This document shows, in pieces, positions 11,132-62,763 of a stretch of DNA of 64,000 nt (position 1 is the stretch's first letter; each line of letters opens with the position of its first letter). The notes beneath the pieces are model-generated. The model ran no database searches. It worked only from the letters and a program-made list of their open reading frames with translations, and had not been told where the DNA came from. The stretch is from an uncultured Pseudomonadales bacterium (lineage in GTDB: Bacteria > Patescibacteriota > Microgenomatia > UBA1400 > UBA12028): the NCBI GenBank assembly GCA_964635905.1, contig CAZWPK010000003.1:66459-130458 (forward strand), written 5' to 3'. A program made the position numbers and the translations under genes.

Positions 11132-11343
11132 TTTTCACTATCAGGTTCACTTGTCCCGTTTCCCCCAGCAGGAGAACTGCTTGGATTGTTTTCCTGTCTA
11201 AAAATCTTTTCTCGTTCAGAGGATGAACTTCTTGCATTCTGAATTCCTCTACCAATATGTACGATTAATTTCAATGCTGCTTGAAGATCCACAATTTTCC
11301 CAAACGGATTGGAATTTTCTTTCATAAAATAGATTCTGGGAGA

Positions 11344-18936: not shown

Positions 18937-19587
18937 TTATGGACACGAAGAACCTGCTTGCCAGGACCATGCTTTGGCAGCACCATTTTGACAGCTGCAC
19001 GGTTCCCAGTGTGCATAAGGAATACCAGTGGTTGTTTGACACTTTACATTAGCGGCAGCACCACCTACACAGTATCCTCCAGCGCCACCATCACTGGAGC
19101 TTACTCCAACCTGACAGATCTGAGTCCCCGTTCCAGAACCACCTGAGCCACCACTTCCGCCGTTGCTGCTACCGGGGACATATTGTTGAGGTTGATTTAA
19201 TCCTAACAAGCTTACTGGGCCACCATTGATTCCTAAGAAGTAGAAGAGAATTCCCACAATCGCAAACACTGATGCAAAAATTGCAAAACCCACTATGGCT
19301 TGCGTAATCATGCTTCGCGCTGCTTCGACTTTGCTTTTATCTCCACCCGCAAGTACCCAGTTAGCACCACCCCAAACTAAATATCCAAATAGAATTAACC
19401 CAGTGATTCCTAGTCCCACATTCGCAAGTCGAGCAATCAGTAATCCTAAATCCACCACAAAGTATCCAGCTGTTCCCGCATCCAAGGTGAGGTCGGGTGT
19501 AGCTCCAGGTGCGCCTTGAGCAAAAATTTGAGAAGGAGCAAGAATGAATAGGAGAATGAGAACAAAGAATATAGTCTTAATATTCAT
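18937..19587 (-). CDS. VirB2/TrbC-like pilin with a C-terminal Gly/Ser linker and a small Cys-rich domain
   Basis: Signal peptide (IFAQGAPG), helix - LAGGDKSKVEAARSMITQAIVG - helix, then a GSSNGGSGGSGGSGTGT linker and about 80 aa containing 6 Cys (CQVG..YCVGG..KCQTT..EPCSC..SSCP). Confidence 0.7.
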   Translation of the reverse strand: MNIKTIFFVLILLFILAPSQIFAQGAPGATPDLTLDAGTAGYFVVDLGLLIARLANVGLGITGLILFGYLVWGGANWVLAGGDKSKVEAARSMITQAIVGFAIFASVFAIVGILFYFLGINGGPVSLLGLNQPQQYVPGSSNGGSGGSGGSGTGTQICQVGVSSSDGGAGGYCVGGAAANVKCQTTTGIPYAHWEPCSCQNGAAKAWSWQAGSSCP

Positions 19588-22656: not shown

Positions 22657-22893
22657 ATGCAAATCTCACGACACTGGCGACTAAACAGTCAGAGGTACCG
22701 CCTTGAAGGAGTACGGTATCAGAACGGACATGTTAGTCTGCAAAACAGGCCAGTTGTGCTTGAGGTACGAGAATTTCGAGGTAAGGAAATCCTTTCTAAG
22801 GCAGTTGAAGTTGCCAATGCACAGCCAGTGACAGTGACAGAGACAGAGGCAGTGACTGTAGCAGATGTAACGACATATGGAAATCGAACATGA
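22657..22893 (+). CDS. Hypothetical small basic protein
   Basis: Start chosen at MQISRHWRL because an AAGGAGA RBS precedes it. The C-terminus has a VTVTETEAVTV low-complexity repeat. Confidence 0.35.
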   Translation: MQISRHWRLNSQRYRLEGVRYQNGHVSLQNRPVVLEVREFRGKEILSKAVEVANAQPVTVTETEAVTVADVTTYGNRT

Positions 22894-23432
22894 TTAGTAA
22901 TCATCTTGATCAAGTCACACTAGTAAATGCGCAAGATGAGGTCATTGGCTCCATGGATAAAGTTGAGGCGCATAAAGGAGATGGAAAGCTGCATCGAGCA
23001 ATCTCTGTGTTTTTGTTCAACGAGAAGGATGAATTGCTTATTCAGCAACGGAGTGCCAAAAAGATTGTGGGTGCGCATCAATGGGCAAATACCTGTTGTG
23101 GAAATGTTCGTCCCACAGATTCATATCTTGAATGTGCTACACGTAGGCTGTCTGAAGAATTAGGAATTACTGGGGTTACGCTAACACCCATTACTAAATT
23201 CATCTATAAGGTTCGGTGTAATGATGAATTTAGCGAGCATGAGGTAGACACAGTTTTTATTGGTACCTACACAGAGAAGGTTATGCCCAACCCCGGAGAG
23301 GTTCAAGCTTACCAGTGGATTATAAAAAGCGAACTTAGAGCACTGATGGACCAGCAAACTCTATCTTTCGCCCCCTGGGTACAGTTCTTGTTGCAGCAAC
23401 CAAAAGTTCAGAAGGTGTTATATGGTGAATAG
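22890..23432 (+). CDS. idi: Isopentenyl-diphosphate delta-isomerase, type 1 (Nudix fold)
   Basis: HRAISVFLFN, WANTCCGNVRP (catalytic Cys) and RRLSEELGIT align with E. coli Idi HLAFSSWLFN / WTNSVCGHP / RRCRYELGVEI. Confidence 0.8.
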   Translation: MISNHLDQVTLVNAQDEVIGSMDKVEAHKGDGKLHRAISVFLFNEKDELLIQQRSAKKIVGAHQWANTCCGNVRPTDSYLECATRRLSEELGITGVTLTPITKFIYKVRCNDEFSEHEVDTVFIGTYTEKVMPNPGEVQAYQWIIKSELRALMDQQTLSFAPWVQFLLQQPKVQKVLYGE

Positions 23433-25045: not shown

Positions 25046-25552
25046 ATGCCAGTTGATGATCAAGAAGAATTATTCTATTGGGTTAATGAAGCTGACGAAG
25101 TGCTTGGCAGTATCACGCGGTACCAGGCGCATCACTCCTTTAAACTGCATCGATCTATTGGAATCTTACTACGCAATGAGAAACAGGAGATGCTGTTTCA
25201 GCAGAGATCTCTACGTAAAGATCTCGACGGTGGGTTGTGGTTGTTTGCAGTTGGAGGACATGTAGCATTTGGGGATAGTTACGAGACGACCGCAAATCGA
25301 GAATTACAAGAAGAATTAGGAATTACTGCAGAGCTTACTTTTCTTAGAAAAGTAATATTTAACACAGGGAAGGAATATCAAATGGCCGGTATTTTTTCCG
25401 CAACAATTCCAAAAGCGACACCTTTACAATTAGACCCAATTGAAATTCAAGCAACAGCATGGGTTCCAATCAACGGCATTGCAGTGTTTACGCTCTCGCA
25501 TCCCTGCACTAATTGGACGATTGAAACTCTTAAGCAGACAGGATTTTTGTAG
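25046..25552 (+). CDS. Nudix hydrolase (IDI-like but lacking the catalytic Cys)
   Basis: HRSIGILL.N...GGHVAFGDSYETTANRELQEELGIT Nudix box. VGGH replaces the idi Cys motif. Confidence 0.65.
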   Translation: MPVDDQEELFYWVNEADEVLGSITRYQAHHSFKLHRSIGILLRNEKQEMLFQQRSLRKDLDGGLWLFAVGGHVAFGDSYETTANRELQEELGITAELTFLRKVIFNTGKEYQMAGIFSATIPKATPLQLDPIEIQATAWVPINGIAVFTLSHPCTNWTIETLKQTGFL

Positions 25553-26738: not shown

Positions 26739-27851
26739 TTACAGAATATCAACGCGTAGGATTAGTTCCACTAATTGAGCTAAGAAATAGGAACAAAAGA
26801 GCAGCAAGAAACCGACAATGGCGTTCGTGATCCGTTGTTTTCCTGCCTCTTGGCTTTTGGGATTTGCGGCTCCAGTGAGCATTTCAAATCCTCCCCACAT
26901 AATCATGACGAAAAGAATGAGTCCGGCAAACGTAAACAAGTAAGGCAATAACCGAGAGATGATCCCTCTGGGGGTCGTGAGATCGGCAGTAGGCTGCTCA
27001 GCGAAAATTGAACTATTTAAGCTATCGAAAAGGGCAGTGGTGTTTTCACATACTCCTCGTGGAAAGGTACAGTCGCCAAGACCACACCCTTGAGTATTAC
27101 CACTGGTGCAGTAACTTGCGCCTCTTGAATTGATATACACCCTTGCATATCCATTTTGACGACAGAGAGCTTCTGCTTGACTGCGAAGCATTAATTGGTC
27201 GACGTTAAGGTTGATCTGTTGCCCCATACTGATCTGTCGAGCGTGCTGTTTTTGTTCTCGACTGCACAAGACATCCGTTCCATTTTCCTCAATACAGGTT
27301 TCTGTAACACTTCCATTTCCTAACAGCTGACACGAATCTGGAGCAAGTGTGAGTTGCGCTTGATTTGCGGTGGCTAAACATTGGGTGTTGGTTGCCTCTG
27401 TCCATCCGCAGCAACGTGCATTCGTTCCGCCAGCCGGATCGGTCAGAGAGATATTGGGGCACGTGGAGGGGCAATTATAATTATCTCGTGCATGTGTCCA
27501 CTTTGTTCCACAGGTTACGGTGCTACCGGGTGGGGCTAGAGGAAGAAAAGCAGATGAACATGCCCATTCGCGTCCCGGACGTTGTTGTGGGGTCTGAGTG
27601 AGTCCTAGCGGTGCAAACGCATCGACCCAGGTTGAATTCCGACAGACATAACACAGATTGTCGGTTCCCCAACACGCAGTTCCTTCCGCATACGATGCAA
27701 GCCCGTTTTCACATTTGGGTCCGCAGAGAGCTTGAGCTTTTGATGGCAGGAAAAATCCGACGCAAAAAAACAAACTAAGAATGAATACTTGGATTGTGAT
27801 TGCACTTCGCACCATCTTCTTAGTGTAGAAGATTTTCCATGATTGGTCCAA
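26739..27851 (-). CDS. Secreted Cys-rich extracellular domain fused to a C-terminal VirB2/TrbC-like pilin module
   Basis: Signal peptide (probable start MVRSAITIQV at ~27815). About 270 aa with 26 Cys. The C-terminal 75 aa (TPRGIISRLLPYLFTFAGL...TGAANPKSQEAGKQRITNAIVG...) match the pilin family and are ~85% identical to 27861..28184. Confidence 0.7.
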   Translation of the reverse strand: MDQSWKIFYTKKMVRSAITIQVFILSLFFCVGFFLPSKAQALCGPKCENGLASYAEGTACWGTDNLCYVCRNSTWVDAFAPLGLTQTPQQRPGREWACSSAFLPLAPPGSTVTCGTKWTHARDNYNCPSTCPNISLTDPAGGTNARCCGWTEATNTQCLATANQAQLTLAPDSCQLLGNGSVTETCIEENGTDVLCSREQKQHARQISMGQQINLNVDQLMLRSQAEALCRQNGYARVYINSRGASYCTSGNTQGCGLGDCTFPRGVCENTTALFDSLNSSIFAEQPTADLTTPRGIISRLLPYLFTFAGLILFVMIMWGGFEMLTGAANPKSQEAGKQRITNAIVGFLLLFCSYFLAQLVELILRVDIL

Positions 27852-28191: not shown

Positions 28192-29538
28192 CTATGTGCC
28201 AAATCCTGGGATTTGAAGGAGTTTAACTCCAATAAACTGAAGAATGATCACAGAAAAGATGATGAATAAAATTCCCATAATTGCAGATGTCACCATCTCT
28301 TGACCTTCTTGCACTCGTTTTGGATCACCAGATGAAGTTGTCAGTAAGAATGCTCCATAGAGGATAACTAGGAGAACGATTCCACCAGCAAGGCCTAAGA
28401 TGATTCGTAAGAATGACTGAATCATACCCGTGGGAGATGTTTGAACACAACCAAAAGCTGTCCACAAACTACTAGGAGCGGCACTATCAGAGACGAGTCC
28501 TTCTTGCCCAGGCTCAGCTCCACCGCCACCTGAACCATAACATCTTAAACACTTATCACGGTCTGTTTGACCTTGAGGACCAGTATTATCTGCTTGTAAG
28601 CAGAGAGCAAAAGCGGGGTTTTCAGTGTCTGCTCCTGGGCCTTCTACCGGATTTCCCGTTTGCGGGTCAATTCTAAATGAAGCGAATTGACATGCGACTT
28701 CTACACCGCCGTTGGAATTTTGTCTTATTAGACGGAAGGAGGCACCATTGTACGACTTGTTAAAGACGTCCGTCACGGTTAAAGATGGAGCACAGTTTGT
28801 GGCTGGTGTACAGTTCGTGGATTGTTCCCGGATTTCCTGTCCATTTGCATTGGTTCCTAAGTACTGAAGGTAATACCACCTACCATCATTAGTATTAAAT
28901 CCATTTGATGGAAAATTTGCAGTAATCGATGTGGTTGTAGCTGATATATTAGCTAATGCTGGAGAGAAAACTACAGCACTGCAGGTAGGTTCCTGCGATT
29001 CGAACTCAGGACTTTCTATGTCTAATAAGCTGAGTATTCTAGAAAGATCTTCTTGGCGACAAATTGTCCAAGACTGAGTTGATAATGTAGCATTTAACGT
29101 TTTTCCTTTAAATTGAGCAACATCTCCAGCTGAGAATTGAACCGAAAAAGTATTTCCAGAACGCAAGAGATTAGCTCCGGAGAAGCTTTTTGAATAACCA
29201 TCCCCTGTAAAGGTTAAGGTTGGAGTCTGACCAGTCATGAATGAATCAAGAGTGGTGGTATTATATGAGGTTTGAACAGATATGGAGATCGTGTCACTTG
29301 GTCCAATTAATGCAATTTGTCCACTCCTGATCCGATCTTGATCAACTTGTGGGAGATGACTGAAGTTACCGTTGGTTGAAAAAAGGATAATTTTACGTCC
29401 ATCTGGGGCTACATAAGATTGAGGAATTGATGTGACAGTACACACTGCAGGCGCCTGAGCGAATGCGTTCTGAACAAAACCTACAAAAAATAGAATGGAT
29501 TGCAGGATGATGGCCAACAACTTAAAAGCAGTCCTCAT
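28192..29538 (-). CDS. Secreted ~370-aa extracellular domain fused to a C-terminal VirB2/TrbC-like pilin module
   Basis: Probable start MRTAFKLLAIIL... with signal peptide NAFAQAP (the track ORF extends to 29616). The C-terminus reads helix - TTSSGDPKRVQEGQEMVTSAIMG - helix. Confidence 0.65.
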   Translation of the reverse strand: MRTAFKLLAIILQSILFFVGFVQNAFAQAPAVCTVTSIPQSYVAPDGRKIILFSTNGNFSHLPQVDQDRIRSGQIALIGPSDTISISVQTSYNTTTLDSFMTGQTPTLTFTGDGYSKSFSGANLLRSGNTFSVQFSAGDVAQFKGKTLNATLSTQSWTICRQEDLSRILSLLDIESPEFESQEPTCSAVVFSPALANISATTTSITANFPSNGFNTNDGRWYYLQYLGTNANGQEIREQSTNCTPATNCAPSLTVTDVFNKSYNGASFRLIRQNSNGGVEVACQFASFRIDPQTGNPVEGPGADTENPAFALCLQADNTGPQGQTDRDKCLRCYGSGGGGAEPGQEGLVSDSAAPSSLWTAFGCVQTSPTGMIQSFLRIILGLAGGIVLLVILYGAFLLTTSSGDPKRVQEGQEMVTSAIMGILFIIFSVIILQFIGVKLLQIPGFGT

Positions 29539-29681
29539 ACCTACTAATTTTACCATGAAGCGTGAAAATCTAGAGGGGGAGATCGATTTTAGGTTAGATT
29601 TATAGATAGGTCTCATATCTTGAGGACATTTCCCACTATCTTCGGGTGTGCGAATGATGAGATCTTCGGTAGAATAGAGAG

Positions 29682-32182: not shown

Positions 32183-32446
32183 ATGACAGAAGGACAAATT
32201 TTAGGTCTCATGATTGATCCCAATAGCCCTTATCTGTTCTCGGATGCCTTTATCTTTGGCATCTTGCGATGGATGGTCTTGTTAGGATTTGGACTCTACT
32301 TGTTATTTTCGATTGTTATCGTTCGACAAATTCATCTGATGACGACCACCGTGGGAACGGGGTTTGAACTGCCTATAAAAATTCTAGGATATTTACACTT
32401 AGCTTTCGCTGTGACTGTTTGGCTCATTGCCTTTACAACTCTATAA
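32183..32446 (+). CDS. Small membrane protein
   Basis: Two TM helices. Start placed at MTEGQ. Confidence 0.35.
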   Translation: MTEGQILGLMIDPNSPYLFSDAFIFGILRWMVLLGFGLYLLFSIVIVRQIHLMTTTVGTGFELPIKILGYLHLAFAVTVWLIAFTTL

Positions 32447-34259
32447 ATTCCAGCCATCTCGTCGTATGATGGTAGAAATGTCTCCGTTCATTTCTACTCT
32501 AACTGGAATTCCATCAAAAGACTGTTGGTCGGCAACCGTTTCCCAGGAAACTAACGTTGGTACGCTCGTGTGTGCGATGACGTTTTTTGGCTCAAACGCG
32601 CAACAACGAGGAAAAGAGTGTCAATCCGCGATAGAAGAATTGGCGGGGCATCTCACCACGCCAGAACAATTTGTCTCTTTTTTCCAGACTCTTCCATTGA
32701 CGGACGGGGAGCTGGTTGCCGGGCTCATTACACTTCAAGAATCACTGTTCTTTACATTTGGGAAAGCGCAAGCGGTTTTAGTGCGGGGCAATGAGAGTCA
32801 TCCGATTATCAATGAAGATGTTATCCAAACGACCCATTCGTCGTTTATGCGGGGAGAAGTGAGTGAGACAGACGACGTGTACCTCGGAACGCAGTCTTTC
32901 TTTGAATCGTTGTTTACTATCGTTTCCACCTCACTCCATCCAGAGAAGATGCTGTCGTCCTACCCCTCTGATTCACAAAACACGGCGGCGAATGCAGGGC
33001 TTTGTGTGGCGCTTGTGCAACTCAAAGAGCCAGAAGTAGAAGAACCCACAGTCCCACTTCCAGCAATTCAAACTCTGCCTCCATCCACCATAAGTCCTCC
33101 GCCGTTGTCGCATCGACCATTGCAGACACGACGCATCAAAGTTGGATTCAAACGCTCCAAACTTGTCGGAGCCTTGGGAGTTGTCATCGCTTTTTGTATT
33201 GTAATCGTTCTTGGAAACTCTCTCATTTTGGGTCGACGCAACGCGCGTGTAGAATCCGTAATCAAGCCCTACTCTTTACGGCTAGAACAGGCAAAAGGGC
33301 AATCCGAGAAGGTTGCCAAGATCCAAGCGCTATCTGCACTACTAACTGATCTTGAACAATCTAGAGTACAGTATGCCTCCGATCGCCTCATTTCTCGCCG
33401 ATTTGATGCGTTATTTCAATCGGCAAAAGCAGAGTATGAGGCAGTTTCCGCACAAAAAGAGATTGCCAAACTTTCAGTGTTCTATGATTTTAGATTAGTT
33501 GCGGCGGATTTTGTCGCATCTTCCTTTGCGTTTGATCGTCCAGGGAAATTAGCCGTTTGTTTAGATCGTACTCAAAACAGGCTTCTCTCACTGTCATTGG
33601 AAAATAAAGCCCCCCAAACCTTATCCATTGCCGACAAATTGACTGAGTCGACTGCGGTTACCGTGCAAAATCGTAAAGCCTATGTGGTGGGTACGCAGGG
33701 TGTAATCGAATTATCACTTCCTTTAGATACAATGGGAAAGCTTGTGGCTTCGGCACCCACTGATTGGCAACCGCGATTGATCTCTGCCTTTGGAGATAAT
33801 GTGTATGCTTTAGATCGAAAACAGCGCAATATTATGCGCTTTGATGTCACCGACCCAACCAGCAGTCCGTCAGCTTGGATCAAAGATAAAGAGGGGATTA
33901 ATTTTGATGAGCTAAGTTCTCTGGTGGTGGATGGGGACGTTTGGGTTGGAACAACCCAAGGAACTGTCTTGCGCTTTTCCAGAGGTGAACAGATTGGGTT
34001 CAAGCTAGAACAGGCAGTGAGCTTGCCAACCTCTACGATTGCACTGTATACAACCGAAACAAGTACCCTACTGTACATTCTTGAACCCCGAGGAAAGCGA
34101 CTGCTTGTCTATCAAAAAGATGGGACCTATGTCGCATCGGTGATCAGTCCTGATTTAGAGACAGCCAGTAGTGTTATCGTCGATGAAGAAACGCAGACAG
34201 CCTACATTTTAGCTGGCAGTCTGATCTATAGTGTCAGCTTGCAAATCCCTTCCTCCTAA
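32427..34259 (+). CDS. Hypothetical 610-aa protein with one TM segment
   Basis: Long ORF. TM at VGALGVVIAFCIVIVLG. The C-terminal half is rich in predicted beta strands. Confidence 0.55.
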   Translation: MPLQLYKFQPSRRMMVEMSPFISTLTGIPSKDCWSATVSQETNVGTLVCAMTFFGSNAQQRGKECQSAIEELAGHLTTPEQFVSFFQTLPLTDGELVAGLITLQESLFFTFGKAQAVLVRGNESHPIINEDVIQTTHSSFMRGEVSETDDVYLGTQSFFESLFTIVSTSLHPEKMLSSYPSDSQNTAANAGLCVALVQLKEPEVEEPTVPLPAIQTLPPSTISPPPLSHRPLQTRRIKVGFKRSKLVGALGVVIAFCIVIVLGNSLILGRRNARVESVIKPYSLRLEQAKGQSEKVAKIQALSALLTDLEQSRVQYASDRLISRRFDALFQSAKAEYEAVSAQKEIAKLSVFYDFRLVAADFVASSFAFDRPGKLAVCLDRTQNRLLSLSLENKAPQTLSIADKLTESTAVTVQNRKAYVVGTQGVIELSLPLDTMGKLVASAPTDWQPRLISAFGDNVYALDRKQRNIMRFDVTDPTSSPSAWIKDKEGINFDELSSLVVDGDVWVGTTQGTVLRFSRGEQIGFKLEQAVSLPTSTIALYTTETSTLLYILEPRGKRLLVYQKDGTYVASVISPDLETASSVIVDEETQTAYILAGSLIYSVSLQIPSS

Positions 34260-34738: not shown

Positions 34739-35139
34739 GGTGGAGATGCCCGGATTGAACCGGGGTCCGTATATGAACCTTGCCATCGTCTACACACGTA
34801 GGTCATTCTTGATCAAGCTAGATCGGTGAACTTCCAAGCCGTATTCTAGCGTCTCCAATGCTAAATCTTTTATCGGTAGGATTGGATACGACCGACAAGT
34901 CACACTGACTGGGTTTCCACCCATTCGCTTACATCAGTGAGATAAGACGAATGAATGCTAGCTTAAGCTAATGCGTAAGCTGGTTGTTCGTTGGTGCCAA
35001 ACACGAAGTTTGCCACACGAGCGAACAAGTTGCTAAGTTTTGAGTTAGCAGTTATTGTTTTGGCTCTGTTTTACATCTTCTCTAGCCAAAGATGGTGTGC
35101 AGATGGTAAAGAGCGATACACGTCGAAACGTACATCCCC
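34739..35139 (-). ncRNA. ssrA: tmRNA (SsrA), standard one-piece form
   Basis: Minus-strand 5' end GGGGAUGUACGUUUCGACGUG (the conserved UUCGACG). The 3' end has a T-arm CCCGG-TTCAAT-CCGGG and an acceptor CATCTCC-A-CC pairing with the 5' GGGGATG. An internal ORF encodes the tag ANFVFGTNEQPAYALA followed by TAA. The 3' end abuts the smpB stop. Confidence 0.8.
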
Positions 35140-35978: not shown

Positions 35979-36065
35979 GGAGAGGTCGCATAGTGGCCTA
36001 GTGCGGAAGTCTTGAAAACTTCTGTGGGTTTACGCTCACCGTGGGTTCGAATCCCACCCTCTCCG
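35979..36065 (+). tRNA. tRNA-Ser (anticodon UGA), type II with a long variable arm
   Basis: Acceptor GGAGAGG/CCTCTCC, anticodon stem GAAGT/ACTTC with loop CUUGAAA, T-arm GTGGG-TTCGAAT-CCCAC, discriminator G. Confidence 0.8.
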
Positions 36066-37817
36066 CAATACTGAACAAACAGGCTCTAGATCAAGCATTT
36101 GCACGGATAGATCAGCATATTTCCCAGGTTGTAATCTATTTGCTGTGTCCAACATTTCTCTCTTGCCTTTTTCAACTAAAAAGTACGATTTATCCCCATC
36201 TATCAGTAATTTTCGTTCAAATACTCGTAGGTTAGAACCAAGTTTCTTTAATACATAAGTCTTTTCTTGAACCGTGCCATGCTCAAATTGGTATCTTGCG
36301 GTACTGACAAAATCAAATGTTTCCTTAGTTTGAGCGATCCACTGTTGCTGTTGAACGTCAGCTTCTTCAAGTTTCTTTTTTAGGTCTGCTTTCTTATTTG
36401 AGATAGATAATTCCTCTTCCTCGTATAGTTTTTTTCTATCACCATCGTATTCAAGATACTCAGGAGAAATGCGTATTCGAATAAGCGACTTTAACTGATC
36501 ATCCATCCGCTTATACTCTCGAAGTAGTCTCTCTTTTACTTCCGTGTCTTTTTTTTCTTCTGTCAGGTTTAACTCATGAATATACTCAAACGCCCAATTT
36601 TTAAACTCCTCTGGAATTTCAAACCTTTGTAATTCTTGATCTATTTTCCTTTCCAGATCTTTCACAGACAGACTTCCTTGAGTACAGTTTTCATGGATCT
36701 TTTTCGTACAACGGTAATGGACATACTGAAGCGTCTTAGGATGTTCCATCTCTTCCAATTTTGTATTACAAGCAGGGCATTTGCTGGTTAATTTTCCTTT
36801 ATGGAATTTGGTCTTACAGACTGGGCAGATTATTTGCCATTTTTCTTCACAAGTGATTGACCCCTGACATTCTCCGCAGATCAGCACTTGTTTATATGGA
36901 AAGTCCTTTTTTGTGTAATGAGAAGTTCTTTTTCCCGATAAACGAATTTGTATTTGCTCAAATTCTCCTTCTTTGATCATTGGTTCATGTTTTCCAGTCT
37001 CTTCTTTAATTTCCTTTTCAACCCTCCTCCTCATGAGTCTATAGTAAAAAGGATCTCTAAGTATTCCGTAGAAAGTTGTTCGACTCATGGGGCGACTTGG
37101 GTGCTTCAAGGTCTGACGTGTCTTGTATCCCCACTCGTTGTTTAGTAAATCAAAGATCTTCATAGGAGCCCCACCTCCCGCAATCATTTTTAGGGCATTT
37201 TGGATTATTGGGAAACGCTCTCGATCTGTGATAATTGTATTTTCCTTTGTTAAAGGGTTCGTATAATTCAAATACCCAGGCTTCGCAGGACCACCCCACT
37301 CTTTCCTTTCAATGAATTTCTCTCGATTGCCTCGACGAACATTCTTACTAAGATCATCAGATGATTTTTTAGTGAGAGTAAAGTCAATTCCTAGAGACAT
37401 CTTGTCATCACTGTTATTGGTAAAAATTCTCTGTGGGGTTCTAAATTCAATTAGTTTTTCCTCATCAAAAAGATAGATAAAACTCCCTGAATCCTTACTG
37501 TTTCGTGCAATTCGAGATGAATCCCAAGCTAAAACTGCATTTCCTTCTCCCATTTCAATGCGTTGAACCATTTCGTTAAAATACGTTCTCCCAATTTTAA
37601 AAGCACTTTTTGACTCTTTATACAATTCGACTATTCTCAATCCAAACCTATTCGCATACTCGGAGAGTATTTTCTCTTGATCAGGGAGTGATGCTATTTG
37701 CTTGTCCTCACTATCACTGCTCTTACGACAATAGATAAAGAATTTAATTTTTTGGAGATCAATTTCATGAGTTCGCAATGGAAAACCGCCACTTGTTAAA
37801 ATAGCGAATGAAAACAA
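36036..37817 (-). CDS. Large serine recombinase (phage/ICE-type integrase) with its 5' end interrupted by an IS30-family element
   Basis: Resolvase catalytic domain (FIYCRKSSDSEDKQIASLPDQ, LAWDSSRIARN), a recombinase domain and a Cys4 zinc ribbon (CGECQG...CPVC...CPAC). The last 10 codons are antisense to the tRNA-Ser T-arm (GWDSNPR). The first ~15 codons (..SGGFPLR..) are read out of the left IS inverted repeat, so the native N-terminus is probably displaced. Confidence 0.75.
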   Translation of the reverse strand: MFSFAILTSGGFPLRTHEIDLQKIKFFIYCRKSSDSEDKQIASLPDQEKILSEYANRFGLRIVELYKESKSAFKIGRTYFNEMVQRIEMGEGNAVLAWDSSRIARNSKDSGSFIYLFDEEKLIEFRTPQRIFTNNSDDKMSLGIDFTLTKKSSDDLSKNVRRGNREKFIERKEWGGPAKPGYLNYTNPLTKENTIITDRERFPIIQNALKMIAGGGAPMKIFDLLNNEWGYKTRQTLKHPSRPMSRTTFYGILRDPFYYRLMRRRVEKEIKEETGKHEPMIKEGEFEQIQIRLSGKRTSHYTKKDFPYKQVLICGECQGSITCEEKWQIICPVCKTKFHKGKLTSKCPACNTKLEEMEHPKTLQYVHYRCTKKIHENCTQGSLSVKDLERKIDQELQRFEIPEEFKNWAFEYIHELNLTEEKKDTEVKERLLREYKRMDDQLKSLIRIRISPEYLEYDGDRKKLYEEEELSISNKKADLKKKLEEADVQQQQWIAQTKETFDFVSTARYQFEHGTVQEKTYVLKKLGSNLRVFERKLLIDGDKSYFLVEKGKREMLDTANRLQPGKYADLSVQMLDLEPVCSVLRRGWDSNPR

Positions 37818-38791
37818 GGAAGCATTTAAGTGATCAGGAACGGGATCAGATTGCAGTCTGGAGAGCCCAAAAAACTAGTATTCGGGAGATTGCTCGGAGA
37901 CTGGGACGACATCACTCCTCCATTGAAGCAGAGCTCCAGAGGAACCGATGGGGTGAAGCATATATTGCCATCCATGCAAAGAAAGAGACGAGGAAGAGAA
38001 TGCAGACTGCTAGGAAGAAACATCCTCTAAAGGATCCTGCAACATATGCGTATGTATTGGAGAGACTCCGGTGGGGATGGAGTCCAGAAGAGATCTCTGG
38101 AAGATTGGAATTGGAGAGAGGAGAAAAGTTCTTGCATCATGAAAGTATCTACCGATTCATCTATGCCCAGAAAAACAAAGGTTTGAAGTTGTGGGAGTAC
38201 CTTCCCAGAAAACAGAAGAAAAGAAGGAAACAAACAGGGAGAAGTAGTCACAAGAGTAGGATTCCAAACAGAGTCTCCATTCACCAGAGGCCAGAGGAGA
38301 TTGAGTCAAGAGAGGTGTTTGGACATTGGGAGGGAGATTCAGTGGTGGGACTAGGAAAGAAGGAATCCATACAGAGGTAGAGAGAAAGACCAGGTTTCTT
38401 CTCGCTAAGAAGGTTGCAAAGATCGGAGCTGTGGAAACAGCTGATGCTCAGGTCCAACTGTTTGCACCACTTCCAAACAAAGCAAGGAAGACCACCACGG
38501 TGGACAATGGAAAAGAATTCACTAAACATGAACAGGTCACGATACATATGGGACTGAAGATCTATTTTGCAGATCCATATTCATCTTGGCAAAGAGGAAC
38601 CAATGAAAACACAAATGGAAGACTGAGAAGATATCTTCCCAAGAAAACCAGTTTCAAAGAATTGGAACAAACAGAGCTGGATGAGATTGTAGCAGAGATC
38701 AACAATCATCCCAGAAAGTGTTTACAATACAGAAAGCCAGTAGAAGCATTTAATCAGGAGTTAACAACTACTGGCGGTTTTCCATTGCGAA
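37772..38791 (+). mobile_element. IS30-family insertion sequence (~1020 bp) with 20-bp perfect terminal inverted repeats
   Basis: Left inverted repeat ttcgcaatggaaaaccgcca at 37772..37791, and its exact reverse complement at 38772..38791. The transposase reads out through the right repeat (..TGGFPLRM*). Confidence 0.7.
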
Positions 38792-38796
38792 TGTAG
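37808..38796 (+). pseudogene. IS30-family DDE transposase split by a -1 frameshift into two ORFs
   Basis: ORF1 37808..38380 carries the HTH and the first Asp (GHWEGDSVVG). ORF2 38326..38796 carries DNGKEF and WQRGTNENTNG. The catalytic triad is therefore split across frames, and no canonical slippery heptamer is visible in the overlap. Confidence 0.65.
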
Positions 38797-38876
38797 GAAA
38801 CTTAGTTGAGAGAATCAATATGGTATTATAGGTGATATAGAGACTACTATCTCTTTCAGTAAACAGGAGGTTTTGT

Positions 38877-39713
38877 ATGTCAGAAATTCCAAATCCACCA
38901 CCTAACCCTGGACAGAAAACACAGGCAGAAATTGATGCAGAGTACGCAGGTATTAAACCTATTATCGATGCTTCTACGGTTCCTGATTCAGTACCTTTAG
39001 CTCATCAAGAAACTGGAGCTGGGGATATATTCAAACCTGTCATTGAAATCAAGAGAGGTGAAAATCGTGAATTTGGTGAGAAGTTCCCTCCAATGCCAGA
39101 CGTTCTCTTATCAAAGGTTGATGAGATTCGTGGTGTGGAGGACTTATATCCAGTCTTAGACCTTATTCGTACGTCTAATCAAGAAGGTACATTAGTGGGT
39201 GAATATTACGATTCGCTTAAAGTTCGCATAGCCGAAAAGATGACGAGAGTATTAGTTCGAGCTGCTAAAGCCTCAACACTTGACCCAGAGATAATAGGAT
39301 TGGAAATGCGGAAGTATGCATCCTATTCTTACCTCTCTCCAGAGCAAGTTCAAACAGTAGAAGCCGCTATCCGCTCACGCTCAGAGTTTAATTTGGCAAC
39401 TGCCTCCCTTGTTGATATCCATCGAAAATATGGAACACGAGGGAACTTACAAAACGATATAGATAATATTGATGACCCTACATACTTAATGTTCATTGCA
39501 GAGTCCATAGATGACCAAATAAGAGGAGGTGGAGCTATTGGGAAGGATGGACGAAGAGAAGAAGCAAGCGCTCTTGATTCCGCAACGAAAGCGTATGGAG
39601 AAGGCATAATTTATGCAATCTCAGAGAGAATGTTGGAATTAAAAAATCCAATGCAGGCGGCAATGCGGAGAATATCTCAGAAGATGGAAAAGTACCTCCG
39701 AGATTCTAAGTAA
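38877..39713 (+). CDS. Hypothetical protein (278 aa)
   Basis: GGAGG RBS. No recognisable motifs. It lies in the AT-rich island. Confidence 0.5.
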   Translation: MSEIPNPPPNPGQKTQAEIDAEYAGIKPIIDASTVPDSVPLAHQETGAGDIFKPVIEIKRGENREFGEKFPPMPDVLLSKVDEIRGVEDLYPVLDLIRTSNQEGTLVGEYYDSLKVRIAEKMTRVLVRAAKASTLDPEIIGLEMRKYASYSYLSPEQVQTVEAAIRSRSEFNLATASLVDIHRKYGTRGNLQNDIDNIDDPTYLMFIAESIDDQIRGGGAIGKDGRREEASALDSATKAYGEGIIYAISERMLELKNPMQAAMRRISQKMEKYLRDSK

Positions 39714-39876
39714 TAAATAAGTAGCCTACTTGCTTACTAAATTCTTACTTGTTTAAATTGCAACAACCATTTCAGATGTATTTATGGTGTTCAAAGTTCT
39801 AAAATAGGTTAGAACTTCGTTCACGGTTCTCCGCCACAACTGACAGAAATAAAAACAAAGTTACATAAATAGACAA

Positions 39877-40863
39877 CTATTTTGCTAATTCTCTTTTAAT
39901 TTCAGCAATGGTCAATCGATCTTTGTCTTGTAATTTTCTGATCTTTTTAATGATGGACACCTGGTCTTGACCATATAACTGATATCCGCCTTGGGAATAC
40001 TCAGCCACTTGTAATAATCCCTCTTTTGTCCAGTGACGAATGGTTGGCACGGTTGCACCAACGAGCTCAGCCAGCTCGCCAATTTTGAGGACATTTTTCT
40101 TTTCTAACACTCTCTCTTGAGCTTTACCCTCTAAAGCTTGAAGGTAAATATCTAATGAGCGATTTATTGCTTCATACATTAGAGCGTAGTAATCCGCGAG
40201 TGAGCCTCCAAGTTGAGCCTTTTCAATACTGGTAATGTATTGCTTCCGTTCCTCTTTACGGATAATGGCTGGAGGATAACCAACTTGCATGAGTAGTAAG
40301 TTCATCAGTAAACGAGCAACTCTGCCATTCCCGTCCACAAAAGGGTGAATACTTACTAACTTGAAATGAGCATCCACGGCTACCGTCAAAGGATTGTCCA
40401 TATTCTTCTGTAACCATGAAACATACTCGCCCATGAGCTCTGGGACCTTCATGGCATTGGGCATAATAACGGTTGAACCTGCGATGCGAACCGGAACAGT
40501 GCGATATCGTCCGGCTTGGTTATCAGCGATTTTTTGGAGAATCAGCTGATGCAAATCCAAGATTGTATTCTCTGTAATATCCTGTTTTGTCGTATCAATT
40601 CGGTGAATCACCCAATCAAAGGCTTGGGCATGGTTCACTGCCTCTAAGTACTCTTGAAGGGTCTTCCCATCGACTGTGACGCCTTTTTCCACCACTAAAG
40701 CAGTTTCAGCTCTAGAGAGGGTATTCCCCTCAATAGCGTTGGACGTATACGTCAACTCAATCTTAAACCATTCACGAAGGTTCGTTACAAGATCAACCGA
40801 AAAAGGCCTGAAACCATCCAATCGTTGTTTTTTCTCCTCTAGTGTAGCCAGAATGTTTGCCAT
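39877..40863 (-). CDS. Fic (AMPylase) family protein with an N-terminal inhibitory motif and a C-terminal MerR-type HTH
   Basis: Fic active site HPFVDGNGRVARLLMN. Inhibitory [ST]xxxE[GN] motif TYTSNAIEGN near the N-terminus. The C-terminus (LKIGELAELVGATVPTIRHWTKEGLL...) resembles a MerR-family HTH. Confidence 0.75.
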   Translation of the reverse strand: MANILATLEEKKQRLDGFRPFSVDLVTNLREWFKIELTYTSNAIEGNTLSRAETALVVEKGVTVDGKTLQEYLEAVNHAQAFDWVIHRIDTTKQDITENTILDLHQLILQKIADNQAGRYRTVPVRIAGSTVIMPNAMKVPELMGEYVSWLQKNMDNPLTVAVDAHFKLVSIHPFVDGNGRVARLLMNLLLMQVGYPPAIIRKEERKQYITSIEKAQLGGSLADYYALMYEAINRSLDIYLQALEGKAQERVLEKKNVLKIGELAELVGATVPTIRHWTKEGLLQVAEYSQGGYQLYGQDQVSIIKKIRKLQDKDRLTIAEIKRELAK

Positions 40864-41279
40864 GTAATGTTAAGTGTAACGTTACACTTCATGGTTGTCA
40901 AGCCAGATATCAAGTACCTACACATCACCAATTTTAGTGGTTTTATGTCTGTGTTGTCGCAAATACGAAGACGGAAAATTCAGTTCCATGCCGTCAGTAA
41001 GGTTTTCAAAAGTTTTTTATGATTTGGCAGAGATCTCCAGGCTTTGAAGGCTGGAGGTGAATGCCTGCCCGGAGTGAAGCGGCGGTACAATGTCATGATT
41101 GATGATTCAACTCATATTGGGAGACAGATCCACTGCAGAGTTTATCGAGATTCTGTGGGAGAATGGAGCGCATGTACAAATTACAGCATAAATTGATTTT
41201 TTGCAGTAACGCTTCTCGGTAAAGTAAATAAGGTATTCACATTCCAGCACACAACTCTGGTTGTTCTACCATAGTAGCT

Positions 41280-41627
41280 ATGCACATTTCTGTTCAAATA
41301 ATCAAAAAACAAACCAACTCCACTCTCAATCGTTCTCAGAAGATGTGGTTGATCTTGATCATTGGGGTCTCTGTAGTGCATCTTATTCGGGATATCCTGC
41401 AGGAATTTGGGATACGATACTGGATTTCAACAATTCTGGTGAAGCCAGGACCACATACGAAGGCATTACTTTGGCATCCCTACAATACACTGATCATCGA
41501 GCTTTTTCTCATTCTTTGTTCACTTGTTATCCTCAAGCGCGAACGGTTTGGACGACTAGGATGGGCAACCGTCTTCGCTGTTATCGTTACCGGATTGGCC
41601 TGGGTCTACTACTGGTATTTCGTGTGA
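41280..41627 (+). CDS. Hypothetical small membrane protein
   Basis: Three hydrophobic segments. Weak call that overlaps the alternative ORF 41261..41680. Confidence 0.3.
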   Translation: MHISVQIIKKQTNSTLNRSQKMWLILIIGVSVVHLIRDILQEFGIRYWISTILVKPGPHTKALLWHPYNTLIIELFLILCSLVILKRERFGRLGWATVFAVIVTGLAWVYYWYFV

Positions 41628-41691
41628 AAGCTTTGCGTTTGATCGAGCAGGGGAAAAGTGTTAGACTACAAGTACGGTAATTAAAATTGAC

Positions 41692-41717
41692 AAGGTGGGT
41701 TTCCCACCTTTTTTTAA
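41692..41717 (+). terminator. Rho-independent terminator
   Basis: aaGGTGGG-ttt-CCCACCtt followed by TTTTTTT. It lies between the island genes and nusA. Confidence 0.6.
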
Positions 41718-42874: not shown

Positions 42875-44290
42875 ATGTCACTTTTACCTCGACCACCAGT
42901 AATTGCAATCATGGGACATGTTGACCACGGGAAAACATCGCTCTTGGATGCAATTCGCAAGACCAATGTGGCCGGTGGGGAAGCTGGCGGAATTACGCAG
43001 CATATTGGCGCGTATCAGATCGAGTACAACAAGCGGTTACTCACCTTCTTAGACACCCCGGGACATGCGGCGTTTTCTAAAATGCGCTCCCGTGGTGCCA
43101 ATGTTACGGATATCGTCATTTTGGTAGTCGCTGCCGATGATGGTGTGAAGCCGCAAACCTTGGAATCGATTCAACATATCAAACAATCCGGAGTAGAGTA
43201 CATCGTGGCAATCAATAAAATTGATATGCCTGGAGCTGATCCAACCCGGGTCAAAACGCAGCTGGCTGAACACGAAGTCTTTGTCGAAGGATTTGGTGGA
43301 AGTGTCTCGGTTGTTGAAGTCAGTGCGAAGACCAAGCAGGGTATGGATGCCTTACTTGATTTAATCCTCCTTACCGCGGATGTCGCTGATCTTCAAGCAG
43401 ATCCACAAGCTTCTTTTAAAGGTGTTGTGATCGAATCCGGAAAAGATCCTCGAAAAGGGGTCTATGCCACGGTCTTAATCCAAGAAGGTTCCTTAAAACT
43501 CAAAGACACATTCTATGTCGGGGACATTGCAGAAAAAGTGCGCATTATGCAGGATGCATTTGGCAAACCTGTAGCGTTGGCAACCCCATCGATGCCAGTC
43601 CAAGTGCTGGGATGGACCGACGTTCCCGCAGTGGGTTCCACCGTAACTGGTGCAGCTATCTCTCAGGATGCAGTTGAGCGTGCAGCTGTTGTTCCACCCG
43701 ATGCAGAAAAACTCAGTGTCATCATAAAAGCAGATGTCGTTGGATCACAAGAAGCGCTAGTTGGCAGTATGCCAGCAGATGTGAATGTGATTGTTTCCAG
43801 TGTCGGTGACGTGAGTGATTCGGATGTCTTATTGGCGCAAACAACCGGAGCACGCATTTTGGGATTTGGAATTAAGGTAACAAAATCAGTACAAGATCTG
43901 GCAGATGTGCATGGAGTTAAAATTAAAAACTATCGCATTATCTACGAGTTATTAGAGGATCTTGAACGACAAGTGTTCCTCTTTAAGAATCCGAAAGCCA
44001 ACGAACAGGTGATTGGTAAAGCAGAAATCATCGCCCAGTTTGAGATTAAAGGGGATAAGATTGCCGGATGTAAAATCATCGAAGGCGAGTTTAAACGTGG
44101 ACAAAATATCTACTATCACTTAAAACGTGCCGAAGCTGAGATCGGAGATCCTCGAATTCGTTCCTTAAAACAGGGGAAGATGGATGTGGAATCTGTCAAA
44201 GCTCCCAACGAATGTGGATTAGTCTTTAGAGGTACTGTTCGCTTCCAAATTGGTGACACCATTGAGTGTTACAGCTTCAAAGAAATTTAA
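42875..44290 (+). CDS. infB: Translation initiation factor IF-2, short form lacking the N-terminal domains
   Basis: G domain ([29 protein letters not shown]) followed by beta-barrel and C-terminal domains. Only 471 aa. The nusA-infB order is conserved. Confidence 0.85.
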
Positions 44291-44355: not shown

Positions 44356-45291
44356 TTAAGTTCGTTTCCGTTCGGCAATCCAGACTCCAGACAAGATAAG
44401 GAGCATCGCAGCAATTTCAAAACCACCGATCCTTTCTCCTAGAAGCACGACTGCCAGAGGAATAGAGATGACTGGCTGGAGATAGGTAAATAAGCCTGCT
44501 TCCGAAGCTTCAATCCCTGCTTGTCCTTTAATATATGCTGTCAGCCCGATAATTGACCCAAATACCGCTGCAAACACCACTACGATGATGACGCGTAGTG
44601 AAGTGAAATCCTGGATCATTACAGAATACAGTGAGGACACGGAAAACGATGACTCGACCAGGCTTAAGATCAAAAATGTAACAAGGCCGACGATAAAACT
44701 AATACTACTTACGAATAATTTAGGGATATGTTTAAAGGTAGATTTTGCTTTCAAGAAATAAATCACTGTAGCCAACGTGTGCACTAAAATCAGAACATTA
44801 CCGCGCATCAGTCCACCCATCGAGGGGGATAACATCGCCAAAAGTGGAGAGACAACTAAGAGAAGTGTTCCAATGATTGCCAAAAAGAGTCCCCACAACT
44901 CCCGTTTTTCCTCTTTCTCTTTGAGGAAATAGACACCTCCAAGCGTAAGTAAAATGGGTGCAGTAGTCCCGATCAAATTCGCTTCAATAGACGTTGTATA
45001 TTGCAAACCAACATATAAGACAGACAGAGCCAGTGAGGTTCCAATCAGCTCTAGCGAAACAATTGTTTTGATTGCCTGAAAAGGCATTTTTACTCGGGGG
45101 AAATAATGCCAGAGAATAGGAACTGAAAGAATGGATGCGAGTAGAAATCGATAGAAGAGGTAGCGAAAGGGTGAGGTATCCTGTAGTCCCCATTTAGCAA
45201 AGGGAAGGAGTGCTCCCCAACACATCGTGTTGATCAGCAGATAGAAGTAGGAAGTCGCTCGTAGTTTGGCTTTTTTGGAGATCACTTTCAT
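44356..45291 (-). CDS. EamA/DMT-superfamily transporter
   Basis: 311 aa with about 10 TM helices in two EamA-like repeats. Confidence 0.6.
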   Translation of the reverse strand: MKVISKKAKLRATSYFYLLINTMCWGALLPFAKWGLQDTSPFRYLFYRFLLASILSVPILWHYFPRVKMPFQAIKTIVSLELIGTSLALSVLYVGLQYTTSIEANLIGTTAPILLTLGGVYFLKEKEEKRELWGLFLAIIGTLLLVVSPLLAMLSPSMGGLMRGNVLILVHTLATVIYFLKAKSTFKHIPKLFVSSISFIVGLVTFLILSLVESSFSVSSLYSVMIQDFTSLRVIIVVVFAAVFGSIIGLTAYIKGQAGIEASEAGLFTYLQPVISIPLAVVLLGERIGGFEIAAMLLILSGVWIAERKRT

Positions 45292-45420
45292 CTACTATAC
45301 GGGATAGAGTGACCACAGGGGAAGTCTGAGACAACCAAGTCAGATAGAATCTCAAAAAGTTGCTTGTATTTGATACAATGACACCCTGTAGTAATCTCTG
45401 GAGGGGTCGCATAGTGGTTT

Positions 45421-45505
45421 AGTGCAGCGGTTTACTAAACCGCCGTAACGAAAGTTACCGAGGGTTCGAATCCCTCCCCCTCCGCAACAAAGTTGTATTT
45501 CTTAC
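45421..45505 (+). tRNA. Type II (Ser-like) tRNA with an atypical anticodon loop UUACUAA (canonical reading gives anticodon ACU)
   Basis: Acceptor GGAGGGG/CCCCTCC, long variable arm, T-arm GAGGG-TTCGAAT-CCCTC, discriminator G. Anticodon stem GCGGT/ACCGC. It is a near-copy of the downstream tRNA-Ser(GCU) with G34 changed to A. Confidence 0.6.
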
Positions 45506-47194: not shown

Positions 47195-47641
47195 ATGCCA
47201 TCCGTACTCTCCTCAGTTAAAGCACTTTTGTTTCATCAGGGAAAGTTTATAGTTCTCAAAGAAGAGCTGCATAAAAAAGACATTTGGGATCTTCCGGGAG
47301 GGAAAATCGAATACGGTGAAAATCCCAGTGATGCCCTGCATCGTGAGATTCAAGAAGAGCTTTGTTTGAGTGTTGAGATCAAGCTCTCAGTGGGACTATG
47401 GTATTTCTTTTCAGCAACACATCAGCATCAAGTAATTTGCCATACGTATCTGTGTACTCCGGTAGGTGAACTGCAGATTGATACCACAAAGAATCCAGCA
47501 GATGAGAATTTTACGGAGCTTCGATGGGTAACGATAGATGAAGTGTTAGCTTCTAAGGAAATCATTTTAGAGGAAAGTTTGGTACTGTTACTCAAAGGTC
47601 TGCAAGTCGACCCCCGATTTACTTCTGAGTATAAAAAATAG
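47195..47641 (+). CDS. Nudix hydrolase (MutT-like)
   Basis: Nudix box GGKIEYGENPSDALHREIQEELCL. Confidence 0.7.
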   Translation: MPSVLSSVKALLFHQGKFIVLKEELHKKDIWDLPGGKIEYGENPSDALHREIQEELCLSVEIKLSVGLWYFFSATHQHQVICHTYLCTPVGELQIDTTKNPADENFTELRWVTIDEVLASKEIILEESLVLLLKGLQVDPRFTSEYKK

Positions 47642-47737: not shown

Positions 47738-47824
47738 GGAAGCGTCGCATAGTGGCCTAGTGCAGCGGTTTGCTAAACCGCGACCCTTAATCGGGTCTCG
47801 TGGGTTCGAATCCCACCGCTTCCG
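47738..47824 (+). tRNA. tRNA-Ser (anticodon GCU)
   Basis: Acceptor GGAAGCG/CGCTTCC, anticodon stem GCGGT/ACCGC with loop UUGCUAA, long variable arm, T-arm GTGGG-TTCGAAT-CCCAC. Confidence 0.8.
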
Positions 47825-47919
47825 CCTCTGTGCTTGATACCATCACACCCCTTAACTTTTGAATGTTTCGTTTTTTGCATTTTCTCTGTAGGATGTGACT
47901 AGTAGATCTACACACAGAT

Positions 47920-62247: not shown

Positions 62248-62763
62248 ATGACTGATGAGCAGGTTGATATTTTGGATGACCACGGGAACGTGCTGTATTC
62301 CACCTTAAAAACGCAAGCTCACAAACTAGGGCTATTGCATACAACGGTAATTAGTCAGGTGATTAGCCGGGATGGCAAGTGGTTACTGGTACAGCAAGCC
62401 GCTAATCGTCAGGATCCTGGTCAGTTTGTCTCTCCGATTGGAGGACACGTGAAAGCAGCAGAGTCGTGTGAAGCGGCATTAATTCGAGAAGGCGCGGAAG
62501 AACTAGGGATTGAGGTTGAAAAATTCCAGCTCATTGGCCAATTTGTCTTTAATCGACCAGTGATTGGACGTAAGGAAAACCATTGGTTCGTTGTCTATGA
62601 AGTGTTTTGTGATCAGTCGATCTCTCTGAATGAAGAATCTACTGATTTTGTGTGGTTATCTCCACAAGAAATGAAGGAACAATTTCGACAGCATCCCGCC
62701 TATTTTGGGGCATCTTTTCATGCGGTGATTGATCACCTTTATCCACACCTCAAAACGATTTAA
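62248..62763 (+). CDS. Nudix hydrolase
   Basis: Nudix box GGHVKAAESCEAALIREGAEELGIEV. Confidence 0.7.
   Translation: MTDEQVDILDDHGNVLYSTLKTQAHKLGLLHTTVISQVISRDGKWLLVQQAANRQDPGQFVSPIGGHVKAAESCEAALIREGAEELGIEVEKFQLIGQFVFNRPVIGRKENHWFVVYEVFCDQSISLNEESTDFVWLSPQEMKEQFRQHPAYFGASFHAVIDHLYPHLKTI

Follow-up and report, generated by a model that had tools for sequence, protein, structure and literature searches.

Results of our analysis indicate that the window (the whole 64-kb stretch of DNA analysed here) carries a serine tRNA gene with the anticodon ACU, and that its product is probably a working elongator tRNA which would read AGU by a Watson-Crick A34:U pair, with A34 most likely left unmodified. 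Adenine at position 34 in the Ser/Arg split box has been described as "universally missing", and A34 tRNAs of two-fold boxes as only sporadic (PMC8007984; bioRxiv 10.64898/2026.05.15.725136). In a GtRNAdb survey of 4047 bacteria, seven two-fold-box ANN tRNAs were universally absent, the sporadic genes of this kind always occurred beside a GNN isoacceptor, and a strong, ancient selection against them was inferred (bioRxiv 10.64898/2026.05.15.725136). Our literature searches returned no report of a natural bacterial tRNA-Ser(ACU), nor of TadA in CPR bacteria. Within the literature searched, a lineage-wide conserved tRNA-Ser(ACU) is thus unreported, and genes of this kind have probably been annotated in public CPR MAGs before, with no remark on them. 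The tRNA described here would be an additional isoacceptor, old and evolving on its own, in a broad CPR/Patescibacteria group with Microgenomates at its centre, and it coexists with an ordinary tRNA-Ser(GCU), which reads AGC and AGU. As such, it would represent the first lineage-wide natural exception to the missing A34 of the Ser/Arg box.

The first-pass annotation had placed the gene at 45421-45505, which is about 20 nt too far right of the ARAGORN position, 45400-45485 on the forward strand (Table 1). Its description of a Ser-type body with the loop UUACUAA, a cloverleaf, a long variable arm and G73 is borne out by ARAGORN, Rfam and the sequence itself, and its canonical reading of the anticodon as ACU agrees with the ACT reported by ARAGORN. 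The covariance score, proposed earlier as a check, amounts to 56.1 bits (E=2.2e-9, full model 1-71 of Rfam RF00005), which is above the gathering score of 29 and comparable to the scores of the two neighbouring Ser tRNAs (56.6 and 54.4 bits). The acceptor stem comprises 7 bp (GGAGGGG/CCCCTCC), the D arm (GCA...UGC with G18G19) has a stem of 3 bp, the anticodon stem GCGGU/ACCGC closes a 7-nt loop U-U-A-C-U-A-A with U33, the variable arm is composed of 5 bp and a GAAA loop, and the T arm reads GAGGG-UUCGAAU-CCCUC. As ARAGORN assigns the amino acid by the anticodon alone, the Ser identity of the gene rests on these structural features. Hallmarks of tRNA-Sec are a UCA anticodon, an extended acceptor stem and a long D stem; an identity as tRNA-Sec was ruled out by the 7-bp acceptor stem, the 3-bp D stem and the anticodon ACU.

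Table 1. Positions of the tRNA-Ser(ACU) gene and of related features in the window
Feature	Position	Strand	Evidence or remark
tRNA-Ser(ACU) gene, class II, G73, no encoded CCA	45400..45485	+	ARAGORN, Rfam RF00005, orthologues, family covariation
Anticodon A34-C35-U36 in loop U32 U33 A C U A37 A38	45434..45436	+	sequence and ARAGORN
TGATACAAT, extended -10-like motif, putative promoter	45371..45379	+	20 nt upstream of the mature 5' end
EamA-family transporter gene, conserved neighbour anchoring the tRNA position across species	44356..45291	-	Pfam EamA; tblastn synteny in L002, L004, L006, L007
tRNA-Ser(GCU), conventional AGY reader coexisting with the ACU tRNA	47738..47826	+	ARAGORN, Rfam
tRNA-Ser(UGA), third of the syntenic Ser trio, mobile element at its 3' end	35979..36066	+	ARAGORN, Rfam, Pfam
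tmRNA	34739-35139	-	ARAGORN
Large serine recombinase	36036-37817	-	3' end overlaps the 3' end of tRNA-Ser(UGA)
Split IS30-like HTH_38/rve ORFs	37808-38796		in the insertion
Fic+MerR protein	39877-40863	-	in the insertion

The motif TGnTAnAAT is present upstream of the orthologues of the gene in relatives L002 and L007 and, as a variant, in L004 (alignment), so that it lies 18-30 nt upstream in three of four Woesebacteria species and in a variant form in the fourth. A scan around the gene for terminators and for sigma-70 promoters with a required -35 element returned nothing, and the promoter listed in Table 1 therefore stays putative. The single-sequence MFE fold is a hairpin and not a cloverleaf, in which, at positions 45414-45443, the D-loop segment GUGGUUUAGUG pairs with UACUAAACCGC, the anticodon included; this pairing is not conserved, as most family members among the metagenome matches listed carry GGCCUAG or GGUCUAG there.

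The IF-2 encoded in the window shares 97% identity with that of a Candidatus Woesebacteria MAG and 69-76% with those of six other species-level genomes. NCBI places Candidatus Woesebacteria in the Microgenomates group of the Patescibacteria group, and the host is a small groundwater CPR bacterium of Candidatus Woesebacteria. The records of four relatives (L002, L003, L006, and L007) bear the title 'uncultured Pseudomonadales bacterium'; these MAGs belong with Woesebacteria by their IF-2, NusA and synteny, and the titles look like mislabelling.

Loci of relatives (L001-L007) were fetched via IF-2 and then analysed with ARAGORN, with no selection on the anticodon. In three species whose IF-2 is 71-76% identical to that of the window (L002, L004, and L007), a tRNA-Ser(ACT) gene lies beside the EamA gene, which marks the conserved position as genomic context and not by function; an exact-protein look-up of this EamA neighbour returned no record. 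The comparison with orthologous tRNAs of relatives, suggested in the first-pass annotation, has thus revealed the same A34 gene beside EamA in three other species, with the A-C-U anticodon loop common to all these synteny-based orthologues. The L004 orthologue has compensatory changes in each of its acceptor (GGAGAGG/CCTCTCC), anticodon (GCCGC/GCGGC), T (GTGGG/CCCAC) and variable stems, and the loop YUACUAA is kept. Such orthologues in synteny show that A34 is neither an error of sequencing nor a mutation private to this genome, and that it did not arise by a recent duplication. The complete UGA/ACU/GCU trio of Ser tRNAs is present in L004 and L007. In L007, the tRNA-Ser(ACU) gene (13566-13654, reverse strand) is inverted relative to the EamA gene as compared with the window, L002 and L004, and its position is the same. 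In the close relative L006, the region within 10 kb of infB is devoid of an ACU gene; the tRNA-Ser(GGA) of L006 was considered as an anticodon-switched orthologue and dropped, as its similarity to the ACU genes is 0.73-0.84 and to GGA genes 0.74. The loci of L001, L003 and L005 end too early for the presence of the ACU gene to be judged.

A pattern comprising the D arm and TACTAA (20 specified bases) was used to scan metagenomes and matched at least 120 loci. Because both the ACT anticodon and one D-arm sequence were built into the search, the resulting set is uninformative on other anticodons in the family and on the fraction of CPR lineages that carry the gene. According to ARAGORN, at least 114 intact tRNA-Ser(ACU) genes are present in metagenomes, at least 97 of them distinct; most of the remaining pattern matches among those listed are located at contig ends. 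In an alignment of 98 sequences from among the matches listed, the cloverleaf is paired in 99.6% of cells, both sides have changed in 18 of the 25 pairs, and the covariation score is 0.454 vs. 0.144 in shuffles, with none of 500 shuffles reaching the observed value, while slid controls are paired in 42-62%. Over the 69 columns not fixed by the search pattern, the pairwise identity among these listed matches has a median of 76% and a minimum of 46%. In E. coli, the Ser identity set consists of G73, G1:C72, G2:C71, A3:U70 and C11:G24. Among the matches listed, G73 and C11:G24 are each present in 98 of 98 sequences, G1:C72 in 97 of 97, and G2:C71 and A3:U70 each in 96 of 97. The variable arm of the listed matches has a 5-bp stem, all pairs of which covary, and a GAAA or GCAA loop, and G18G19 and the TTCRAAT T-loop are conserved in the ACU family among these matches. 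A viral origin was rejected: the single viral pattern match (L201 9795-9824) is a chance one, inside a 1611-aa ORF and without tRNA structure.

The SmpB proteins encoded on ACU-bearing metagenome contigs among the matches listed are only 35-47% identical to that of the window (66% in the case of L004 and L007), which indicates that the ACU-bearing lineages are deeply diverged. Several of the listed ACU-bearing contigs are 0.75-1.4 Mb in length, which fits near-complete CPR genomes. The loci among the matches listed encode also other Ser tRNAs, namely GCU (54), UGA (34), CGA (29) and GGA (18), and thus the ACU tRNA is an additional isoacceptor and not a replacement. When neighbour proteins within 3.5 kb were clustered for 121 loci among the matches listed, no consistent partner was found; the largest groups were a 174-aa protein without Pfam hits (23 loci) and a ComF-like protein (18), followed by GIY-YIG proteins (9) and fragments of large serine recombinases (7). 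In L101 (593-1387) and six other listed metagenome loci, Recombinase/Zn_ribbon_recom ORFs are located directly 3' of tRNA-Ser(ACU) on the opposite strand, which indicates that in other lineages this tRNA gene is itself an integration target.

The closest tRNA to compare is the bacterial tRNA-Ser(GCU) of serV type, which shares with tRNA-Ser(ACU) the class II fold, the long variable arm, G73, the GGAG start of the acceptor stem, the U33/U36/A37/A38 loop context and the codon box, and is found in the same loci, often about 150 nt away among the matches listed. They differ in position 34 (G there, A in the ACU tRNA), in the tRNA body, which in the case of ACU has evolved separately, and in the expected decoding, as the former reads AGC and AGU and the latter would read AGU only. 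In the window, the D arm and the anticodon arm of the two genes are common apart from position 34. The first-pass description of the ACU gene as nearly a copy of tRNA-Ser(GCU) holds for these arms and is overstated for the whole gene, since 65 of 87 aligned columns are identical; the differences concern three acceptor pairs, the whole variable arm and one T-stem pair, and all of them preserve pairing. Among the matches listed, GCU is the commonest close neighbour of the ACU gene (median distance 152 nt, vs. 95 nt for UGA), lies within 3 kb of it in 11 of the 14 loci that extend 3 kb or more to either side, is 62-78% identical to it and is most often its nearest relative among co-resident Ser tRNAs. 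This proximity and relatedness fits an old tandem duplication that may have been followed by the change of G34 to A.

Three Ser-type tRNAs had been noticed within 12 kb, and indeed the UGA, ACU and GCU genes span 11.85 kb and are, together with the tmRNA, the four RNA genes detected by ARAGORN in the window. One of them had been thought to be an integration site, which is confirmed by an integrated element at tRNA-Ser(UGA). An insertion of ~5.6 kb (36036-41700) separates this gene from nusA; besides the elements given in Table 1, it holds a 278-aa ORF without Pfam hits, and its GC content is 0.39-0.41 vs. about 0.44 elsewhere. A search for att repeats of this element revealed none that were convincing. 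L004 and L007 lack the insertion, and in both of them tRNA-Ser(UGA) is located ~130 nt from nusA and on the other strand. The earlier suggestion that mobile elements duplicated the Ser tRNAs does not agree with the synteny of the UGA/ACU/GCU trio in relatives that have no inserted element.

The genetic code, as judged from codon alignments, is standard, with AGA/AGG for Arg, AGU/AGC for Ser and TAG as a stop. Opposite the AGA codons of the window, homologues have chiefly CGN (31%) and Lys, which rules out a reassignment of AGA to Ser, while opposite the AGT codons they have chiefly TCN, Thr and Ala; tests limited to close relatives and to conserved columns agree with these results. Counting of AGY versus UAG, another check proposed in the first-pass annotation, gave 260 AGU and 111 AGC codons in the window, with TAG ending 14 of the 41 long ORFs. 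The U fraction of 0.70 equals that of the other two-fold boxes and is no outlier, so that a codon usage signal is visible only against other lineages. As a measure, we used the AGU-over-AGC log-odds relative to other two-fold NNY boxes. In this comparison, which is crude on account of mechanical ORF calls, phylogenetic non-independence of loci and control CPR loci that may carry the ACU gene too, the median log-odds was -0.91 in 63 non-CPR loci, -0.86 in 10 other CPR loci, -0.30 in the 78 ACU-bearing metagenome loci among the matches listed and about 0 in six loci of the Woesebacteria group, and the Mann-Whitney test for the listed ACU-bearing loci gave p of 0.0012 vs. other CPR and 1.3e-8 vs. 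non-CPR. The usual preference for AGC thus seems to be relaxed where the ACU tRNA exists, as would be expected if this tRNA has a role in translation.

Two conditions would make such a tRNA tolerable, one concerning serylation and the other position 34. SerRS does not use the anticodon, and the replacement of G34 by A would therefore leave charging intact; the blindness of SerRS to the anticodon would explain how Ser could gain a two-fold-box A34 tRNA with no loss of charging. The other condition is the absence of a system converting A34 to inosine, and hence of an ICU anticodon that would misread the Arg codon AGA. We infer the expression of tRNA-Ser(ACU), its serylation, the unmodified state of A34 and the decoding range.

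Almost every bacterial or eukaryotic tRNA known to encode A34 has it converted to I34, and the loop UUACUAA resembles the loop of TadA substrates except for position 36, so that deamination by a TadA-like enzyme, yielding a tRNA-Ser(ICU) which would read AGU, AGC and possibly AGA, has to be taken into account. It appears quite unlikely to us. Inosine pairs also with A, and AGA, which aligns with Arg in homologues, is a common codon (150 in the window; 9-15 per 1000 codons, with 15.5 per 1000 in the ACU-bearing loci among the matches listed), so that ICU would put Ser at many Arg sites and I34 would be costly. In the boxes where I34 is used, the codons ending with U, C and A specify one amino acid, whereas here AGA/AGG specify Arg and AGU/AGC Ser. 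Among the matches listed, 25 ACU-bearing loci contain tRNA-Arg(GCG) and 12 contain tRNA-Arg(CCG), none contains tRNA-Arg(ACG), and Ser(ACU) is the only A34 tRNA. CPR bacteria have been reported to be devoid of tRNA-Arg(ACG) and to use GCG instead (Shulgina and Eddy, PMC8629427), and the presence of tRNA-Arg(ACG) has been tied to that of tadA (Ehrlich et al., PMC8007984). A search for a TadA/CDA deaminase by motif and tblastn found nothing below E=0.5 in the 64-kb window and 2.1 Mb of related loci. An inosine system seems to be missing from these bacteria, the absence of TadA being deduced from tRNA-Arg(GCG) and the literature. As concerns engineered tRNAs, a two-fold-box A34 tRNA (Phe-tRNA AAA) was inferred to be partly deaminated in E. 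coli (bioRxiv 10.64898/2026.05.15.725136), whereas an engineered ACU tRNA was unmodified in the same host and decoded AGU at 9.4%, AGG at 0.36%, and AGC and AGA below detection (PMC11066159). The frequent AGA, the tRNA-Arg(GCG) and the unmodified engineered ACU tRNA together point to an unmodified A34 that would read AGU. Thus, of the modified-A34 decoder considered in the first-pass annotation, the A34 decoder stands, and an unmodified state of A34 is favoured, as AGA is a common Arg codon and tRNA-Arg(GCG) is found instead of ACG. In 25 listed metagenome loci (L081-L200), tRNA-Arg(GCG) shares clusters with tRNA-Ser(ACU), e.g., at L081 13037-13111.

Since tRNA-Ser(ACU) looks redundant with tRNA-Ser(GCU) and yet is strongly conserved, it might serve a specialised or non-ribosomal purpose, such as the donation of serine to cell-wall or other tRNA-dependent transferases, regulation, or a spare copy resistant to G34-specific anticodon nucleases, or else its A34 might bear an unrecognised modification. 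Dedicated non-proteinogenic tRNAs exist in Staphylococcus; tRNAs of the cell-wall type are marked by a degenerate G18G19 or T-loop and by linkage to Fem-type transferases. The conserved G18G19 and T-loop and the lack of a Fem-type neighbour in the 121 loci clustered among the matches listed do not fit a non-proteinogenic, cell-wall tRNA. More generally, the ACU family keeps the canonical form of all the elements that EF-Tu and the ribosome require (G18G19, T-loop, U33, A37 and a G:C-rich T stem), its neighbours among the matches listed include no recurrent tRNA-dependent transferase or other enzyme family, and the shift in AGU/AGC usage fits ribosomal use; a specialised role or an unrecognised modification is therefore improbable, if still worth considering. 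We give a similarly small chance to the idea that the conserved A34 is more than tolerated, owing either to a CPR-specific wobble modification other than inosine or to a non-ribosomal or regulatory use of seryl-tRNA. If true, a CPR-specific A34 modification or a dedicated use of seryl-tRNA would mean a chemistry of decoding or of tRNA use that has no known counterpart. The first-pass annotation had also pointed to an amber suppressor, in which a one-base shift of the anticodon loop would present CUA. The letters CUA do occur at loop positions 35-37, but in a standard 7-nt loop with U33 they cannot occupy positions 34-36: the 5-bp stem is conserved and covarying, U33 precedes A34, and the presentation of CUA would need A at position 33. 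Moreover, TAG is in regular use as a terminator of long ORFs, AGU and AGA align with Ser and Arg, respectively, and IF-2 aligns end to end (residues 1-471) with close homologues, so that nothing suggests in-frame stops; the suppressor reading has virtually no probability left. A pseudogene, an error of sequencing or assembly at position 34, or a recent G34A duplicate of tRNA-Ser(GCU) driven by a mobile element might be suspected from the identity of the D and anticodon arms with those of the window GCU gene apart from position 34, and from the mobile element at the nearby tRNA-Ser(UGA). However, the same A34 recurs in three syntenic species and at least 114 independent metagenome contigs, the pairing of 99.6% of cells with many compensatory changes among the matches listed reflects strong covariation, the identity to the co-resident GCU gene among these matches is only 62-78%, and the Ser trio is syntenic in relatives without the inserted element. 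An explanation of this kind, the pseudo-tRNA of the first-pass annotation included, seems very improbable and may be regarded as already refuted by the comparative data.

An elongator tRNA-Ser(ACU) with unmodified A34, the reading that we prefer, has partial counterparts among known systems. The tRNA-Arg(ACG), the one A34 tRNA that is near-universal in bacteria, similarly has an encoded A34 conserved across a lineage, but it belongs to a four-fold box, is always deaminated to I34 by TadA and has G36, whereas the ACU gene belongs to the Ser/Arg split box and has U36. Lineage-wide A34 tRNAs are represented also by tRNA-Thr(AGU) of Mycoplasma and tRNA-Leu(AAG) of Lactobacillales/Oenococcus (PMC11066159, PMC8007984, bioRxiv 10.64898/2026.05.15.725136), and A34 of the former is unmodified, as proposed for Ser(ACU). 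In contrast to Ser(ACU), which coexists with a GNN tRNA in a two-fold split box, both of these serve four-fold boxes, where misreading is harmless, and replace the GNN tRNA. The engineered orthogonal M. jannaschii ACU tRNA used in E. coli (PMC11066159) has the same anticodon, is unmodified and shows the AGU reading proposed here, but, being artificial and built on a Tyr-tRNA body, it does not represent a natural or conserved gene. The supD-type tRNA-Ser(CUA) resembles Ser(ACU) in its Ser tRNA body and differs in having C34-U35-A36, while the normal 7-nt loop of Ser(ACU) has CUA at positions 35-37.

With tRNA-Ser(ACU), the question of why A34 is avoided would become testable in a natural system, and the constraint on A34 may depend on whether TadA is present and whether the synthetase recognises the anticodon. 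A natural AGU-specific decoder would be also of interest for sense-codon reassignment. Additionally, screens of genome quality or genetic code that are based on tRNAs should not flag Ser(ACU) in CPR MAGs as an error.

The rest of the window is ordinary chromosomal DNA, with genes for FtsH, a 5'-3' exonuclease, an ECF sigma factor, UppS, SmpB, a ComF-like protein, NusA, and IF-2, as well as the EamA transporter, an AddA/UvrD-type helicase-nuclease, TypA, Ddl, UvrC, and DnaG. Genes for SerRS, a deaminase or a tRNA-dependent transferase were not found in the 64-kb window. The IF-2 (42875-44290) is only 471 aa in length, as in close relatives; it has no long N-terminal region and is made up of the GTPase domain, domain II and the IF-2 domain alone. 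The tag encoded by the tmRNA is unusually long, 28 residues (ANSKLSNLFARVANFVFGTNEQPAYALA), and the tmRNA of L007 (7441-7843) specifies a 28-residue tag as well, of a different sequence. Four large ORFs (857, 620, 1177, and 610 aa) without a Pfam match are located at 8558-16702 and 32427-34259. T4SS-pilin-like domains are present in three proteins (18937-19587, 26739-27851, and 28192-29616), and four NUDIX paralogues are encoded at 22890-23432, 25046-25552, 47195-47641, and 62248-62763.
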